Shown: positions 7,858 to 61,200, numbered from the whole stretch's first letter. The stretch: DNA of 63,553 nucleotides, filler included, from Sphacelaria rigidula (GCA_964200075.2; 8 parts of 8 records of this genome joined end to end with filler, not necessarily neighbours in it), one strand, 5' to 3'. A program made the numbers and translations. Notes: generated from the letters alone by a model not told the origin.

Positions 7858-7957
7858 NNNNNNNNNNNNNNNNNNNNNNNNNNNNNNNNNNNNNNNNNNN
7901 NTTAATTAATTAANNNNNNNNNNNNNNNNNNNNNNNNNNNNNNNNNNNNNNNNNNNN
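7858..7957. other. Artificial contig-joining spacer
   Basis: N44-TTAATTAATTAA-N44. Confidence 0.99.
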
Positions 7958-44388: not shown

Positions 44389-44429
44389 ATTCCGAGTTCT
44401 GACAAGTAGTTGCAGGTAAGTCTGATGAT

Positions 44430-45780
44430 TTGCGCGCACATCACGACGCCGGGCATCGTGGTGTGGCTACGACGCTCGTGCGCTTGCAAGAGTTTTGTGT
44501 CTGGCAGGGGATAGAAACTCATGTGCGCGAGTTTGTCCGTCAGTGTCTTCACTGTGCTGATTCGAGGGCGGGCGATGTTGTTTCCCGCCCGCTCGGCGAA
44601 ACGGTCCATGGGACCACGCCGAATAAAGTCGTTCAGTTTGACTTCTTGTTCGTGGGCGAGAGTGGGCCGCTAGCTTCCCAAGGTTTGTCGAAGGATGCTG
44701 GATTTCGGTACAGTTCGGTAATCATGGATGATTTGAGTAGCTTTGTGGCTCTGGAACCAGTAGCAGTGTGTACTGCTGAATCGACCGCTGTATTTTTGCT
44801 GGATTGGTGCAAAACTTTGGGGGTGCCGCGTGTGTGGGTGACTGATACCGCCACTAATTTCAAGAATGCGATCGTGGCCAGCTTGCGAGATGCTTTGCGC
44901 GTTGACCACCAGTTTGCCGTGGCGTATTCTCCGCGGTCTAACGGTACGTGCGAACGCCTGGTCAAGGAAGTAGTTCGTGCTCTTCGCTCTATTCTTCTGG
45001 AGCAGCGTAGAGCGGTTTCCGAGTGGGTGGACGTGTTGCCGGCGGTGCAATGGGCGCTAAATACAACGTATCGTCGTCGGCACGATAGTACGACGTACCA
45101 CGTGATGTTTGGTCGTGCACCTCGGACGTCTTTTTCGGTGTTGGCGTCTTCGTCGGCGGGGGAATGGAAGTGTGATATTTTGGACGATGTTTAAATCAAG
45201 AGTGCATTGCAAAGAGTCTTGGATTTGCTAGAACGTTTCCACGTTCAAGTGCAGGAACGTGTTGCCGCTGAACGTGCGTGTAGACGTGAGAGGTCGTCGT
45301 CGGGGCTGGAATTGCCGAATTTCGAGGTAGGCGGCTATGACTTGTATGCACGCGTACGTCGTCCGCGTGTTACGCCTAAATTGATGGCGACTTGGACTGG
45401 TCCGTGGAGAGTGGTTGGTGCTCACCACCCGCACGTGTTTGAGATTCAGAGCATTGTTTCGGGTCGTGTTCAGACCGCCCATGTAGCTCGTTTGCATTTT
45501 GATCCAAACTCGAAGCGAAATGTTACGGTTGACGTTGAGGACGTGTTCCAGCATGCTTTCAACCGGGGGCAATTTCAAATGGCTGGTATTGTCCGAGTGG
45601 CAGAAGCAGAGGATCGTTCGTTGATCGTGTTGGTCGACTGGGTTGGTTTCAACGTACGTGGGAGCCTTTGAAAAATATTTTTGAGGCCGCTCCGGAATTT
45701 TTCACGCAGGAGTTGCGTGAATTGCGCGTGACTCGTGCCGTTGCTGCTCGCATTACGAGCGAGTTTGGTATTCAGTTGTG
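44430..45780 (+). pseudogene. Integrase (HHCC, DDE) with chromodomain-like C-terminus
   Basis: HHDAGHRG...CLHC; QFDF, VTDTATNF, NGTCERL; WTGPW; VLVDWVGF...TWEPLKNI split by a stop and a frameshift. Confidence 0.92.
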
Positions 45781-49696: not shown

Positions 49697-52390
49697 CGAA
49701 TTTCCTCATGAAAGAAACGGTACGCGTTTCAATCGTGCTACAACACACCTTATACACGGAACCGCCTTTCATCCAATACTGGACGGATTCCGTCAAACAA
49801 AGGCCGTCTTGTGTGGATGATGAGCTAGCGCTTGAACAATGCGCGAGAGTGGCGGGTGCCTATGCGTCGCAGACATCCAATGCCGGACCTGGAATAGCCT
49901 GAAACAACAACCAATTTGAAATTTGGAATGGCCGATGCTGCGTCGTTTTTTTTAATCTGGAGCCCACGCAGCAGATTTGAACAACACGACAGTAACGAAA
50001 CAACTCACGCAGAAATGGGGGGGGAACTATTACATGGGACATCAAGGTAGGCAGCTCCTGTCATCAAACGCTTTGGATAGAGCAGCTCCGTGCTAGCTCA
50101 GTTTGTTCGCCCAAACGTTCACGCGTCCGCCTTGCGTGTCTTCTCCGATCCAAGCACCCGACTACAGCTGAAGTACGGACGGAGACGCAAGAGACAGCTG
50201 GACAGTCGTCACGTGATCGTTTCATCGTTTCACCTTTGTGTAAAGAAAGTAGCTAGTGTACAGCACTTTGATCTCACCCCACTTCTGTGCTTACCGGAAC
50301 ACCACATGCAGCACTACAACTGTTCAGGCACTCTCCAGCGCACATCACACCATGTTCGTCGTAGAGTGTTCAAATGCACGACAGCACAGCGACAACTGCA
50401 GCATAGAAATGATGAGTGTAGGAAGCGCCTTGTTCGTTTGACGACATATTCTGAAAACAAAAATGCTGTTGTCGTAGTAGTATGGCAGCAGCAGCTGGAC
50501 ACTATGAATTTTGCAAGAAGAGGAGCTGATGCATACTGTATACAGTCCGTCTTCAGGTTCTAAAACTAAAAAACACTGCAAAACTGCTGTATTGTCTTGT
50601 GTTCAGTGTAGTATTTTGTGCTCCATATACCACTGCAAAACTGTGTTGTGTTCAGTGTAGTACCCTGTACTCCAGATAAGGGGTCACGTTTTGAGCAGTT
50701 TTTGAAAAGTTCTGCTTGCTTTTAAAAGTTCTCGAAAGATTCTGATAGTCTTCCTGTCACAAAAATCCAATGCCGAATCTGGAAGAGCCTGAGACAACAA
50801 CCGATTTGAAAATTGGAACTATGTGTGTATTCGATAGTTTTTGCTGTTGTTGTTTCCACAGGTTATTGAGGTTTTTTGCTTGGGTAGTCTGAGGGTACGG
50901 TTTGGCTTCGGTGGCGTGTGGTCAGAACTGGACGTGAGTTTCTCGACGACTTGAAATTGGCCTACCGATGGCCTCCTTGCTGTCCGATTTGTTCTTTGTA
51001 TATGCTAGCTTCTCGCTCGTCAACGTGTACGAGCCTTTGTGGGGCTACGTATGTGTAAGTATTGGTCAACGGTTTCATTTTAGCGCACCAGGTGCTGTTT
51101 TGAACTCGTGCAAGCTTTCCGCTGGTCAACATGGACGTGCCGTTGCCCAGGGTTGCTGCTATGGAACTGCCAGACAACGGATCTTCTGCACCTCCATGTT
51201 TTTTGCTCCCCTCAAGTTACTGGTTATCGAGGTTGCACGCTTTGCGCTCGTCAACGTGGACTTGATTTTTGTTCAGGGTTCCCTCGGAACTGCAGAACGC
51301 CGGGTATTTTTCTGCACTGGGCGTGGTGCGAATCTCACGGGGAGCATGAGTTCTGTTAGTGCTTGATCAACAACGTCGAGGATTTCACCTGCGCGTGACT
51401 GCCGAGCACCGGGTCTTCATCTGTACGATCATCGTTGGTTCCAACTCTTGCAAGCTTTCCGCTCGTCAACATGAAAGAGTTGTGTGCGACCATTCTCGCC
51501 CGGTTCGGCTTTGATCGCTTTCCTTCTGGATAGCTCCGTCCGAAAACATGCAGACAATCCCCACCTGTTTTTGGGACAATCATCATCTCCCCTCATGCGG
51601 ACTAGCCGACTCTCCCCTGGCGAGCCTGGACTTGTGTGAAGGCTTCGAATAATGCCAAGGTAGTAGTGCACTGTTCAGTCCAAAGGTTTCCTTAGGCTGC
51701 ACGCTGAGGCTCAGATGTTCATCATCGAGAAGCTCTTACTCAAAGGAGTCTCAAGAGACAAAAAAAGTGTACGCCTACGGTGGCAATTCTTCTTACTTGT
51801 GTATACCGTGCCATATGCTTCGTATCCTTCAATAAGAAATCATCTTGGTCGATTGCGTACACATCTCAAAGAGGCCAGCTCATGAGGAGCACAACCCGAT
51901 CCATGCCGCAACTGTAGTGTGAGCCAGAGCATTCACATTCGAGGGAATCATGAGCCGAAAAGGGAAACCTCCTCCGATCAAGTATGATTCAGATAAGATG
52001 AACTAGAACACCCGAGCCTGGAAATACTTCACGGACCTCGCAATAAGCTAAATATTATCACGATTTGAACAGACAGTCCAACAGCAGTGTTAAAGTTCCT
52101 CAAATAGCCCACTACTACAGCGCACCTTCTTCTGGCCAAATCATGGCATATTGGTCATACAATAACACATGGCCATCGCATCTACCGTGACGATCGTTCG
52201 ACGAGACTCTGGATAAACGTAGCTTGGGACACCAGGACCTTACAACCCCATTAACGCTTCCTATCGAGACGAAAGAAATACCACACCAACCGCGTCTCGT
52301 TGCGAGTGCTGACAGTTCACCCTAAGGTACGCCAGAATACTCCCCGCGGAATCTCAACGTCAAAATCGGCGCAAGGACGTGCATCACCCG

Positions 52391-54388
52391 TCATCTTTCA
52401 GGCGTCCAAGGTAGAGAACAAGACGCTCCTAGCCCAAACTTTGAATTCTCCCGAGTCTCCTCAGCTTTAACGTCGTCGAACGCGCCAGTGCACACAGGCA
52501 TCACTGCTGGCAAACCACACATCCGTCCCGTGGTGAAACCACGACTACTAATGCTGGGGCTATTACAACCACCTGCGCTGCTCCAACTACGAGAAGAGGG
52601 AGCCTGCCTGCTATACTCTCTAACCCCATCGACACCGCGTGCATCAGAAGAGACTGCCAGTTCTACCTTCATTCCTACCACCGTCCTTGCCTCTGAAGAC
52701 ACTTCATCATCAGACCCTGTGGGGAGTTGTCCTATGAGCGACGGTGGTGTTGAGTCACCCCGCCTAGGATCTGCGTACACACTCTGGCAAGCACCAACAC
52801 TGTCGCTTGCACCAGAAGCCCAACAAGCTGCACGCTTTCGCTTCTCTTCTCGCACGTCAGCAATGCTTCCTCGACCGCCCTCCGTCTCGCCACGGCCGGA
52901 GGTGGTCAACCCAGTGGTGGGCTTTCCGGTATCGCTCACAAGAGCTGCGTCGTGTGCAGTAGCATGCCCTCGCGAGTACTTTACCTCATCAGGGATACCC
53001 CTCTGAAATATATCGAACTTGGAGCATCCATCTTTGCTGAACCCCTGGGTGACCGCATTTACGACAGTCGCCCTGTCATACTGGCAGCAGCACTTCGCCT
53101 TCTTGCTTCCCGCTACACCAAACGACGCACACTTGGAGCAGCCTTCATCTCCGCACCTCTTGATTTCGATACCCATTCCTGTTCCAGCGTGCTTAGAGCA
53201 GAACTCCGTCTTCTTACTTCCCGCTACACCAAAAGACGCATGCTTGGAGCAGCCGTCGTTGCCACACTTCTTACTGATCACGTAGATCATTCGCGCTCTG
53301 GCATGCTCGGAACAGAACTTCTTGCTTCCCGTCACACCAAACGACGCACGCTTGGAGCAGCCTTCATCTTCGCAACTCTTGTGTTTGATACTTACCATTC
53401 CTGCTCCAGCGTGCTCGGAGCAGCACTTCGCCTTCTTGCTCCCCGTCACACCAAACGACGGATACTTCGAGCAGCCGGCGGTGCCGCACTTCTTACCCTT
53501 TACAGCGACCATTCCCGCCCTAGCATGCTTAGAGCAGAACTCCGCCTTCTTGCTTCCCGCTACACCAAACGACGGCCGCTTCGAGCAGCCGTCGTTGCCA
53601 CACCTCTTTTTTGTCACATCGATCATCCCCGCTCCGGCATGCTTAGAGCAGAATTCCGCCTTCTTGCTTCCCATCACACCAAACGACGCACGCTTGGAGC
53701 AGCCTTCATCTTCGCAACTCTTGTGTTTGATATTCACCATTCCTACTCCAGCGTGTTCGGAGCAGAACTCTGCCTTCTTGCTTCCCGCTACATCAAAAGA
53801 CGGATACTTCGAGCAGCCGGCGGTGCCGCACTTCTTACCCTTTACAGCGACCATTCCCGCCCTAGCATGCTTAGAGCAGAACTCCGCCTTCTTGCTTCCC
53901 GCTACACCAAACGACGGCTGCTTCGAGCAGCCGTCGTTGCTGCACTTTTTACGCTTGACATCAATCATCCTCGCTTCGGCATGCTTGGAGCAGAACTCCG
54001 CCTTCTTGCTTCCCACCACACCAAACGATGCACGCTTGGAGCAGCCGTCGTTGCCACACTTCTTATTTGTCACATCGATCATCCCCGCTCTGGCATGCTT
54101 GGAGCAGAACTCCGTCTTCTTGCTTCCGGCTACACCAAACGATGGTTGCTTCAAGCAGCCTTCATCTCCGCACATCTTCTTATTGGTATTTACCATTCCT
54201 GCTCCAGCGTGCTCGGAACAGAACTCTGCCTCGCAGCCCAATAGACCGTGCGATGGGCGCTTGGAGCAGCCCTCGTTGCCGCACTGTTCTTTCGCAACCG
54301 GGGCCATTAGCTCCCTCCTCGTGGCGTGGAATCGTGAGGACGACCTTGTCACACAAGCACAATTCACCAAGCGACCGAGAGTTTGCAT
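52391..54388 (-). CDS. EsV-1-7-like Cys/His tandem-repeat protein
   Basis: Uninterrupted ORF with 11 repeats of about 38 aa (C-x4-C-x-K-x2-SFGVxGSKKxxFCSxHxxxGMxxV) plus one degenerate repeat, then a low-complexity tail with KRKR. First ATG at 54388, alternative ATG at 54307; extra exons cannot be excluded. Confidence 0.88.
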   Translation of the reverse strand: MQTLGRLVNCACVTRSSSRFHATRRELMAPVAKEQCGNEGCSKRPSHGLLGCEAEFCSEHAGAGMVNTNKKMCGDEGCLKQPSFGVAGSKKTEFCSKHARAGMIDVTNKKCGNDGCSKRASFGVVGSKKAEFCSKHAEARMIDVKRKKCSNDGCSKQPSFGVAGSKKAEFCSKHARAGMVAVKGKKCGTAGCSKYPSFDVAGSKKAEFCSEHAGVGMVNIKHKSCEDEGCSKRASFGVMGSKKAEFCSKHAGAGMIDVTKKRCGNDGCSKRPSFGVAGSKKAEFCSKHARAGMVAVKGKKCGTAGCSKYPSFGVTGSKKAKCCSEHAGAGMVSIKHKSCEDEGCSKRASFGVTGSKKFCSEHARARMIYVISKKCGNDGCSKHASFGVAGSKKTEFCSKHAGTGMGIEIKRCGDEGCSKCASFGVAGSKKAKCCCQYDRATVVNAVTQGFSKDGCSKFDIFQRGIPDEVKYSRGHATAHDAALVSDTGKPTTGLTTSGRGETEGGRGSIADVREEKRKRAACWASGASDSVGACQSVYADPRRGDSTPPSLIGQLPTGSDDEVSSEARTVVGMKVELAVSSDARGVDGVREYSRQAPSSRSWSSAGGCNSPSISSRGFTTGRMCGLPAVMPVCTGAFDDVKAEETRENSKFGLGASCSLPWTPER

Positions 54389-58299: not shown

Positions 58300-61200
58300 C
58301 TCGGGGTAACGGGTCAGATCGGGCATCGACAGCGGCTCCACCAATCGCAGCCAATCGAGGTTTGCTAGATATCGGAGAAGGTGGTGTAACTATATATCGG
58401 GAAGGTCGTAGCGTAAGGTTAATAGGTGGGTGGACCGGAGAAACGGAAGCTGGTGGACGTCCTGCTGGGCTTCCTGGACATTGGGCTGTTCTCCACGGAC
58501 CCGAAACAGGTTCTGGTCACCATCAGCGGTGAGCTAGAACTACCCCTTGTTTGAGAGTACTTTACTTCATTCGCAGCGAATCAACTCCACGTTTGTTTTG
58601 CCGAGTAGGGTCACGTAGCTCCCCACGTGGTAGACTTGAGACCGCCCGCACAACACCGATCAAGGTTCCGTAACAGGTGAGAGTACTGGTCATTGCGCAC
58701 AATCAGCGAACGAACGAAGGTAGGCGAAGTGCTCTCCGCAAGGGGGGAGACGCCTAGTTCATTCTCAGACCTCCGACTGGACACAGTGGCGAATGATCGT
58801 GCTCTGCAGACCCTTACTAGCGCATCCAATCTGATCGCCAGCTAGGAGGCCCTTTGCGAGAACAGGTGCAATCGGACCTGAGGGGGGGCGTACTCATTTG
58901 TTGCTTGCCTTAGTCGTTCGACCATTGCCCACGCATCCCTTTCGAGACGGAGCACCGCTCCTACTCCTGATAGAGACACCTTCAACATTCCGGCGCTCAT
59001 TACGTTCCTTCCATTGCTCATTACGTTTCTTCCATACATTGTACAAAAACCTTTTACACATCTTATCCCCGTCCTGTTTCGCCATCTGTGGCCACCATCT
59101 ATCTCCTAGTAGAACCATCGTTTTCTCCCTACTGTCTAATGCATTAAACGATTTCATGCGAGCTTCGTTCACGTTCCGCATTTCCCCCTCTAGCACGTGC
59201 CATTCCTCGTTGTATAGTTCACATTCTGCCACTACATGGCTTCTGCTCTCTATTGCTTCGCCACAGAGGCAGTTCTGTCCATATACTTTCTCCTCCTTCC
59301 GACCACTGGTATATATATTTCTTCTTTCTGGCAAGTCCAGGCCCCCCACCCGAAATCGCAGTTTCAATTTCTTCGCCGCGTCCATGGGGCCATGCAGATA
59401 TATATGGTTTCATTCCGACCCCCTCTCTCAACCACCCTTATATCTCAGGATGTTCTTTCTCGTCTACCTTACGTCTGAGCGCTCCCTTCCCCCCCTATTT
59501 CTATCGTGTCTCTCAATTTTGTCTTGCACCCCGCGCCTTCATCTATGAACAGTTTTTCGCCTTGGTGTCCTCCTATCTCCTTCCATACTTTGTCGACTTC
59601 TCTATCCCACCTTATTATGGCATGTCCTTTCGTACTTCTCTTCCATACAGCCTTATCAACTATTGCTGGCAGTAGCTTTGCATGTTTCTCAAGCTGTATT
59701 ACCCTCTCAATTTCCTCATGCCTCTGTTTGTAGTGAGTACATTTCCCGCTCTACTCTCAGTGCTGTATTCCTCGTTGTCTTCGAGCATCCAAGTATGTTC
59801 TTAGCTGCTGCCATCTGTACTGTTTCCAACCTCTCGACCAATTTCACGTTCCACTCCCATACTTCTTCTGCATATTCCAGCTTTGATGCAATCATGTTCA
59901 TCAGGATACATCTCTTAATCCTAGTGTCTAGGTGCGAATCTCTGAGAAATACGCCCAACCTGCCTATCTGTACCTTACCCTTTTTCTATTGCTCTATTTA
60001 CGTGTGCATCCCAGCAATAGTGTTTCGAGATCTTTACGCCCAGGTATGTATACTCGTCTACAATTGGCAGTTCCTCTCCTCTCCACTTCCACTTGAACTC
60101 TATTGGATTCGTCTTATCTTCGTTACAGATGAGTACCGCGCAATTGTTGACATTCGCTGTCACTCTCCATTTCCTTGTATATTCTAGCGCCTTGTCTATC
60201 TGTTGTTGCAATCCTTCTGCTGTTCCTGAAATCCCCACAAGATCATCGGATCTGAGGGCAAAACGACTGCCGAAACGGTAGGTGAGAGGCGATCTGAGTA
60301 CAAAATAGAAGCGATAACTGAGAGTCGATGATGAGGAGCTGCCGGCAGTTCCAAAAATAATGATCGCCGACCTGCTGGCACTCGTTCACACATTTCATGA
60401 AAAATTAACAGGAGGTTCCACCTTATTATCCACGATGCGTGACCGCTTCCTTTTGTCAACAGGTACGGAAGGTATCAGGCATGATGTGCTGTCATGCAGT
60501 TGCAGGAGGCCCAAGAGATCAAGCGGTCGTCAAACGACCATGAGGTAGGGGCGTGCGGTAGACCCATGGGACGAGGTGGTCAACTTGGCAACGATTGAGG
60601 ACATACTGCACTCACATACATCTGCCGGGCAGTTGACCTCGCTTCCCGATCCCCATTTGGCTTTCCACAACCATCAAAATAAGCCAACTCGGTGGTCCTT
60701 GCCCCTGTGGATTGTGCCTAACTTCCGGTGTCCCTCAAACGATTCGCTGAAGAGAGGGAACGCTTTTAGCGTGGAGGTAGTCCCCCATTTGCGCAGGTGA
60801 CTGAAAGAGGATATCGCTTTCCGAAGCGTCAGATCTCCCACGCGGTCAGGACGCAGTCGTCAGCCCAGGAGGATGGCTACTGAATATGTTGTCGGAGCTT
60901 TGCGAGTCATAACGTCAGGTGGAGTGAGCAAGTCTAATTGGCTCTTTGAATCAAGCACACATTGCTTGACACGCTGCTTTCCTCCCCGAGTTGCCGTGTC
61001 GACGCAAAATCACGCATATATCTAAGCTGACTTGCACTTATCTCACAAGAAGCTTAACCGAGTGTAGAACTGGACCCTTTCGTAGAACAGCGCGAAGAGC
61101 ACCTATGCGAGGTAAGACTGGGGATGGATCCGGAGAGAGAGATCTGAACGGGTCGGGATGGCAACGGCAGGAACCTGCAGCACTAGTACACGGTACATGA

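Follow-up and report, generated by a model that had tools for sequence, protein, structure and literature searches.

The EsV-1-7 family of brown algae, said to have been described by Macaisne in 2017, reportedly includes the developmental regulator IMMEDIATE UPRIGHT (IMM). EsV-1-7 genes number 95 in Ectocarpus and up to 335 in Ascophyllum (10.1101/2024.02.19.579948), and they form the largest brown-algal orthogroup (10.64898/2026.04.27.720984). Their expansion in brown algae, their viral affinity, and the zinc-finger idea have been published (10.1101/2024.02.19.579948, 10.64898/2026.04.27.720984, PMC7457493, and PMC12993054), and PMC12629598, citing Macaisne 2017, presents the proteins as hypothesised zinc-finger transcription factors. 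An EsV-1-7 domain is also located at the N terminus of TcMar-2_Ec32, a mariner transposase of Ectocarpus (PMC12477816). The passages on EsV-1-7 that we examined mention no per-residue selection, nuclease fusion, or tail pattern of SUMO sites and nuclear localization signals (NLS), some of which may be contained in the 2017 description or in supplementary tables. Here, we describe an EsV-1-7 gene carried by a 63,553-nt stretch of Sphacelaria rigidula DNA (the window), which shares both its repeat and its expansion with this brown-algal family. Diversification of column 9 of the repeat, together with fusion of the repeat to a nuclease in viral homologues, indicates that EsV-1-7 arrays are probably modular DNA readers. 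On balance, we favor the view that the window protein acts in the nucleus and works like KRAB zinc-finger arrays through another fold.

The EsV-1-7 array and its diversifying position

The gene is a real and intact member of the EsV-1-7 family. Its product (P0001) consists of a leader of 8 residues, the repeat array (residues 9 to 421), and a tail of ∼215 residues, and the Pfam profile PF19114 (EsV-1-7) matched it in 11 stretches at 480.1 bits, against a cut-off of 25. Ten repeats, starting at positions 54283, 54172, 54058, 53944, 53830, 53716, 53602, 53488, 53374, and 53266, have the complete Cys-Cys-Cys-His motif, and the eleventh (53155) lacks the His. A reading of this DNA made from the sequence alone had already proposed the family assignment, 11 C-C-C-H modules with the last one devoid of His, the residue pairs RP, QP, RA, QP, YP, RA, RP, YP, RA, HA, and CA, and the linker words NTNK, DVTN, DVKR, AVKG, and NIKH; all of this was borne out by the open reading frame (ORF), the repeat alignment, and the PF19114 match. 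Tandem Repeats Finder reported a period of 114 bp (10.1 copies) and a higher-order period of 342 bp (3.2 copies). The repeats are not independent, because a block of three was duplicated to give repeats 4 to 6 and 7 to 9; only 3 of 114 nt separate repeat 4 from repeat 7, including one that changes the column-9 codon (Q to R), and 12 separate repeat 5 from repeat 8. The array is net basic (76 K+R versus 35 D+E across 413 aa). Each repeat probably binds zinc, as its Cys/His pattern suggests, although the invariance of these residues in the repeat set used below is no test of zinc binding because repeats were chosen by that pattern. IMM orthologues are defined by an IMM-specific N-terminal domain followed by five repeats (10.1101/2024.02.19.579948). 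The window protein is not one of them: its first Cys is residue 9, which leaves no long N-terminal domain, and it has 11 repeats.

A PF19114 search of the S. rigidula genome (G000; 244 Mb) returned 4,575 first-look candidates, 150 of which were scored. Our paralogue sample, 100 stretches around matches, is biased toward Pfam-like repeats and relatives of the window gene. Arrays occurred in 99 of these stretches and in the window, amounting to 108 ORFs with a median of 13 repeats per locus (range, 3 to 37), and the genome holds at least 100 array loci. The strings of column-9 residues in the 108 ORFs are all different. Variation was assessed on repeats of canonical spacing only (1,399; 1,395 unique), with those containing inter-Cys indels, including 3 of the 11 in the window, left out. 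Column 9 is the residue three positions after the second Cys of the repeat, and column 36 belongs to the linker.

These two columns had the highest entropies of the repeat (3.24 bits for column 36 and 3.23 bits for column 9), compared with 1.24 bits for column 10. Column 9 was occupied by Q (362 of 1,395 repeats), R (306), H (178), K (146), L (108), or Y (47), whereas acids and Pro were avoided (E, 8; P, 7; D, 1), even though E and P are one step away from the common Gln codon. The composition of column 10 was 76% P, 12% A, and 6% S. The ratio of nonsynonymous to synonymous rates (omega) was first counted over those 711 of the 1,394 pairs in the minimum spanning tree that had no more than 12 differences, using four-fold-site rates and the most synonymous path. 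Columns 9 (1.34; interval, 1.15 to 1.53) and 36 (1.37; 1.20 to 1.55) were alone in having a lower bound above 1; the upper confidence limit was below 1 in 32 of the 38 columns, and counting omega was ∼0.75 to 1 in columns 2, 7, 24, 28, 29, 35, and 38. When codon likelihood was tested column by column on a FastTree tree, the maximum-likelihood (ML) omegas were 1.73 and 2.15 for column 9, with twice the log-likelihood difference (2dL) at 21.6 and 50.1, whereas column 36 had model-dependent values of 0.90 and 1.73. Among 1,213 in-register repeats, i.e., those with another repeat following in exact register, three models yielded omegas of 1.77, 2.31, and 2.00 for column 9, the sole column of 38 that was positive in all of them, and of 1.00, 1.77, and 1.33 for column 36. 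Column 10 is under purifying selection, with omega at 0.53 (0.39 to 0.69) by counting and 0.61 to 0.65 by ML.

In eight null simulations with omega set to 1 at columns 9, 35, and 36 and the tree re-inferred, 2dL was at most 2.0 at column 9 and 4.7 across all 24 tests. Gene conversion can be discarded as the source of an artefact, since four of these simulations included conversion tracts in 40% of the repeats and produced no false signal. A CpG hot spot behind column 9 was likewise rejected; four-fold sites showed no consistent excess (C, 0.129 versus 0.085; G, 0.069 versus 0.104). Columns 9 and 36 change independently of each other (100 co-changes observed versus 108.9 expected; z = −1.5; 713 pairs). 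Column 9 is thus one robustly diversifying residue per repeat, and column 36 is a possible second diversifying site in the linker. The focal variability put forward by the sequence-only reading is therefore retained by entropy and dN/dS for the first residue of each pair, for which omega exceeds 1 in all models and the null simulations are clean, but not for the second, column 10, where it is 0.5 to 0.65. The TALE-like di-residue fails on this result and on the absence of 9-36 co-change, which together rule out a di-residue or two-site code. The claim of a variable linker patch stands as far as variability goes, column 36 being as variable as column 9, whereas its omega moves between 0.9 and 1.8 with the model.

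Nuclease fusions and the C-terminal tail

Among the best 120 of 187 homologues surveyed for fusions, 34 have a nuclease-type C-terminal domain with the motifs K-x-K-E, R-P-D, E-x-D-E-x-x-H, and R-x-N-P-D; a 35th pattern match, P0093, was false. No Pfam family covers this domain. In IMG/VR, it was found at three of six loci, two loci having been read in part. One viral contig (L062:1410-6149) contains four adjacent EsV-1-7 array genes without it. The AlphaFold2 (AF2) model of P0109, which combines array and nuclease, reached a predicted local distance difference test score (pLDDT) of 86.7 and a predicted template modeling score (pTM) of 0.47. Its fused domain matched I-Bth0305I (3R3P; Z 8.2; root-mean-square deviation [rmsd] 3.2; 95 aligned) and Vsr (1CW0; Z 8.1; rmsd 4.4; 119 aligned), and most Foldseek rows were PD-(D/E)xK-type nucleases, none of them at E 0.001. 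These matches point to a Vsr/EDxHD-type nuclease fold, in a tie with the RAP domain considered below. The motif string agrees, by motif order rather than superposition, with the catalytic residues of Vsr and I-Bth0305I given in PMC3239194. The fused domain has 4,676 relatives, and of the best 120, 118 keep the motif string and 116 carry PF19114, with 0 to 7 repeats counted. In these 120 relatives, column 9 holds Q (34%), R (32%), I (15%), L (6%), and H (5%), and column 36 holds N, S, H, and D, as in the alga. Within nuclease-fused arrays (214 repeats), R, Q, H, and K together account for 59% of column 9 and D and E for 1.4%, which is the R/Q-led set of the alga.

In BFVD, the P0109 model matched proteins of giant viruses, of which several had the label Endonuclease, as well as EsV-1-7 itself and proteins labelled C2H2-type; C2H2 fingers may thus occupy the slot of the array in some viral proteins, going by match labels that come with no alignment ranges. 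In S. rigidula, the nuclease motif is absent from all 108 array ORFs, including that of the window protein, and the domain was not found in the genome (best match, E 0.68). No transposase fusion was seen in the array-protein tails inspected, and a search for longer fusion proteins gave a single match among 7,379 candidates, a weak line of evidence. The nucleic-acid-binding role suggested by the sequence-only reading gains support from the nuclease fusions of the homologues and from the published transposase fusion (PMC12477816).

Some further observations concern these fusions. Q8QNG4 of BFVD (EsV-1-115 of the phaeovirus EsV-1) aligned to the array-nuclease model across 450 columns (rank 14), and EsV-1, a virus of brown algae, may encode such a fusion. 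P0151 has the same nuclease with a Zf_WRKY19 label (PF24906). EsV-1-7 arrays cross-match Zf_WRKY19 (P0048, P0064, and P0118) and, weakly, SBP (E 0.7), leads according to which the EsV-1-7, Zf_WRKY19, and SBP Cys/His modules may be related. An identification of the viral nuclease fusion with MIGE was dropped, because 10.1101/299784 describes MIGE as one zinc-finger ORF preceded by a short stretch of non-coding sequence, the comparison being one of descriptions.

The tail of the window protein is of low complexity and matches no Pfam domain (E up to 0.01), and the whole protein has no C2H2 or KRAB-like Pfam match (E up to 1). The KRKR motif noticed in the sequence-only reading is present, but at 52843-52832, outside the interval 53060..54290 under which it was reported. 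The tail also contains two matches to psi-K-x-E, the SUMO acceptor consensus (Table 1). Across the genome, K-K/R-x-K/R occurs in 69 of 85 tails of at least 120 aa, against 14.0 in shuffles, and psi-K-x-E in 80 of 85, with 148 motifs versus 11.6 after shuffling in these tails, which are related to each other. We therefore drew one tail from each of 32 clusters of 59 nuclease-free homologues not labelled Sphacelaria. These unrelated tails contain 20 psi-K-x-E motifs versus 4.9 shuffled (maximum of 16 in 500 shuffles), carried by 17 of the 32 versus 4.3 expected, with no enrichment of four control motifs. Nuclease-fused tails showed no psi-K-x-E enrichment (10 versus 14.4). The genome also contains an exon of a SUMO-like gene, with a di-Gly motif at its end (L149; G000:C1675:5327-5521). 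Collectively, these motifs suggest nuclear location and SUMOylation of the algal proteins.

Proposed mechanism and alternative explanations

In the mechanism that we propose, each ∼38-aa repeat would be a small C3H zinc module, and the modules would lie along DNA as a flexible basic string. Column 9, perhaps with columns 36 and 11, would tune base preference and be diversified for it, and duplication of repeats within arrays and of whole genes would provide each paralogue with a different string. Giant viruses would place the array, a presumed DNA-binding arm, before a Vsr/EDxHD-type nuclease. In the alga, where the nuclease is absent, a disordered tail with NLS-like and SUMO-consensus sites would make the protein a transcriptional or chromatin regulator. 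DNA binding and sequence specificity are predictions of this scheme, and transposons or viral inserts are hypothetical targets.

Several points weigh against such a reader. For between-locus pairs alone, omega at column 9 is 1.19 (0.96 to 1.45) and not significant; the likelihood test used a grid of our own making in place of PAML or HyPhy; omega at column 9 is modest; and trees from 114-nt repeats are rough. Some arrays are dominated by a single column-9 residue (ten Q in L111; mostly Q in L091) and therefore fit simple expansion. Viral arrays are more variable at column 11 than at column 9 (3.07 versus 2.37 bits). The AF2 model of window repeats 2 to 8 (107 sequences) is weak, with pLDDT at 63.9 and pTM at 0.26, so the exposure of column 9 cannot be judged from it. 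In I-Bth0305I, binding by the N-terminal arm is largely non-specific (PMC3239194), and nuclease fusion is therefore no proof of a code. Finally, FASTKD4 has an RNA-acting RAP domain whose match to the P0109 domain is level with those of the nucleases (Z 8.0; rmsd 3.5; 110 aligned).

The non-specific arm of I-Bth0305I would also suit arrays that are low-specificity basic DNA clamps, in which columns 9 and 36 are relaxed exposed sites subject to repeat turnover and weak affinity selection, with no code. Column 36 is indeed neutral-like under one model (omega 0.9 to 1.0), seven further columns have counting omegas of ∼0.75 to 1, the variable columns do not co-change, the commonest column-9 residues are mostly one step from CAG, and the array extends over more than one ORF at 5 of 100 loci. 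We nevertheless regard this explanation as unlikely: column 9 has an omega above 1 under each of the three models, with a signal beyond that of the null simulations; E, D, and P are excluded from it, and its R/Q-led set is common to viruses and algae even though neighboring columns change.

A repeat array joined to a RAP domain is an RNA-acting layout. The RAP tie thus bears on a second alternative, that the arrays read RNA like pentatricopeptide repeat (PPR), octotricopeptide repeat (OPR), or CCCH proteins and act post-transcriptionally, e.g., on viral or transposon transcripts, for which basic repeats are as well suited as for DNA. It is made improbable by the best matches of the fused domain, which are DNA nucleases, by the fit of its motif string to the catalytic residues of Vsr and I-Bth0305I (PMC3239194), by the transposase fusion, which points to DNA (PMC12477816), and by the SUMO-consensus tail, which suits chromatin regulators.

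The array model shows separate small modules with strands at columns 12 to 14 and 31 to 33 and no fixed overall shape. Helices of at least 4 residues are missing from the repeats in both AF2 models; the repeats reach pLDDT ∼80 to 90 in the P0109 model. Column 38 and the following column 9 are marked as single bridge residues at 2 of the 6 junctions, with one further case in the viral model; should these residues pair, column 9 would lie near the linker patch. The repeat had no match among PDB sequences, and its fold gave no Foldseek match at E 0.001 and no Atlas match once PF19114 was skipped, results that indicate neither novelty nor absence of a known fold. Its best VIA structural match was a RING domain (Z 3.5), among RING and B-box rows, in a low-confidence model. 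Such rows (Z at most 3.5) are what structure offers to a third alternative, surfaces for protein recognition that have diversified against proteins, viral or otherwise, in the manner of the variable leucine-rich repeat (LRR) and tetratricopeptide repeat (TPR) receptors of Ectocarpus; diversifying selection itself is silent on the type of ligand. Receptors of this kind seem a remote prospect, given the known fusions to nuclease and transposase, a tail without signaling or enzyme domains in Pfam, and a column 9 that avoids acids and is not aromatic-rich, unlike typical protein-binding variable sites.

The locus, its paralogues, and comparison with known systems

The window joins eight contigs with N44-TTAATTAATTAA-N44 spacers, the first at window 7858-7957 and six more at about every 7,957 bases. 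Since the contigs are merely spacer-joined, the seven that do not carry the gene are not its genomic neighborhood. Its own contig (7.9 kb) shows no other recognized gene-like ORF by inspection. Non-coding flanks of the gene are common to four close paralogues in the same order, on one or both sides, and this collinearity points to DNA-level duplication rather than retrocopying. Retrocopy or transposon cargo is disfavored on the same grounds, no search having been made for terminal repeats. That this copy is a passenger, be it a viral insert, a transposon part, or a decaying gene, is highly improbable despite a domain common to giant viruses, degenerate last repeats, and an intronless coding region in an intron-rich lineage, because the ORF is intact with 32 of 38 repeat columns purifying, the nuclease domain was not found in the genome, the non-coding flanks are collinear with those of host paralogues, and the contig lacks other recognized gene-like ORFs on inspection.

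Table 1. Features of the EsV-1-7 locus in the window
Feature	Position	Strand	Details and basis
Contig G000:C13213	47742..55597	.	5′ and/or 3′ non-coding flanks collinear with paralogous loci L041-L044
Possible 3′ untranslated region	51767..52390	-	Contig ends and collinearity with close paralogues; weak hint only
ORF, 638 aa (P0001)	52391..54307	-	ATG 54307, stop 52391; no interruption
Second psi-K-x-E consensus, VKAE, K614	52460..52471	-	Motif match
psi-K-x-E SUMO-acceptor consensus, MKVE, K547	52661..52672	-	Motif match
KRKR, monopartite NLS-like motif, aa 489-492	52832..52843	-	Motif; putative NLS function
11-repeat EsV-1-7 array	53042..54283	-	C-x4-C-x14/16-C-x2-H, 36-38 aa each
Triplet duplication, repeats 4-6/7-9	53267..53944	-	342-bp higher-order period
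Column-9 codon, repeat 7 (Arg), duplicate of repeat 4	53576..53578	-	Repeat 4/7 comparison
Column-9 codon, repeat 4 (Gln), illustrating the diversifying site	53918..53920	-	Repeat alignment, selection tests

Contig pieces listed from four public runs matched the gene without letter differences. None of them covers the entire array, and the count of 11 repeats is therefore without independent confirmation. Contigs of two runs of one study, guessed to be RNA, stop at 51767 and 51780, whereas those of DNA-like runs continue past; the same two runs have a contig depth of ∼44 to 80 across the gene and 5 to 7 upstream, whereas DNA-like runs are flat. This is only a weak hint of expression, because contigs show neither level nor strand, and no RNA-labelled run containing the gene is on record.

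Stops or frameshifts split the arrays of five loci (L047, L049, L073, L129, and L138) across ORFs. Ten proteins bearing the label Sphacelaria rigidula match portions of ORFs of this genome exactly, and the nearest named homologues are brown-algal. Eight of these ten public models (P0004, P0006, P0022, P0037, P0050, P0051, P0057, and P0063, at L083, L071, L142, L067, L139, L082, L144, and L069, respectively) cover no more of the array than its C-terminal portion, for instance 5 of 23 repeats. Annotated models may thus underestimate array length; with a median of 13 and up to 37 repeats, the arrays read from ORFs exceed most public EsV-1-7 models that match them. Other contigs of the window contain a broken long terminal repeat (LTR) retrotransposon integrase (44403-45671, plus strand; PF17921 and PF00665), a telomere-like GGGTTA repeat of 7.7 copies within a contig (32835-32880), and ORF fragments with no Pfam match at E 0.01 (58894-60385, minus strand), presumably the remains of a long interspersed nuclear element (LINE) reverse transcriptase.

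The idea that EsV-1-7 proteins are transcription factors is already published, and the present evidence sharpens it into a direct test: the question is narrowed to one residue per repeat, the repeat is linked to DNA-acting enzymes, and NLS-like and SUMO sites are flagged in the tail. If the code is true, the array would be a modular reader of nucleic acids of a new type, standing as an independent counterpart, with ties to viruses, to the zinc-finger arrays of animals. Such a code could then explain the targeting of silencing in Ectocarpus-like algae, which PMC12477816 calls largely unknown; Ectocarpus, the model species of the lineage, is without 5-methylcytosine and H3K9/H3K27 methylation according to the same source. 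A wider proposal is possible but doubtful, namely, that EsV-1-7 is an unrecognized DNA-reading class made up of viral array-guided nucleases and algal KRAB-like repressors of transposons or viral inserts, with IMM co-opted for development. Brown algae would have taken over viral arrays without keeping the nuclease, acquired tails with NLS and SUMO sites, and expanded the family to hundreds, a direction of transfer that we infer.

Among the systems compared, TcMar-2_Ec32 shares with the window protein an N-terminal EsV-1-7 domain, there that of a DNA-acting enzyme, and differs in being a transposase fusion (PMC12477816). Giant-virus-type homologues resemble I-Bth0305I and Vsr-type proteins in joining an N-terminal arm to a C-terminal Vsr-like nuclease. 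The specificity of I-Bth0305I comes mostly from its nuclease dimer (PMC3239194). Unlike it, the window protein is devoid of nuclease, and the arm is an EsV-1-7 array instead of NUMOD motifs. With transcription activator-like (TAL) effectors, the protein has in common near-identical repeats, focal variation, and a putative NLS and effector region at the C terminus; it lacks their repeat-variable di-residue, column 10 being purifying, and their helical-hairpin solenoid, and is built of zinc modules. KRAB/C2H2 arrays and PRDM9 consist of tandem zinc modules, encoded by a minisatellite-like exon, with three or four selected sites per module. Like them, EsV-1-7 arrays are strings of zinc modules on a minisatellite-like exon and form a large, young, lineage-specific family with few diversifying positions per module, a conserved linker, and a separate effector region. 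They differ in being built of C3H modules, modeled with short strands and without a recognition helix, in having one clearly selected site, in the N-terminal position of the array, and in a tail with neither KRAB nor any other Pfam domain; by analogy with KRAB proteins, DNA binding and repression are predicted for EsV-1-7.

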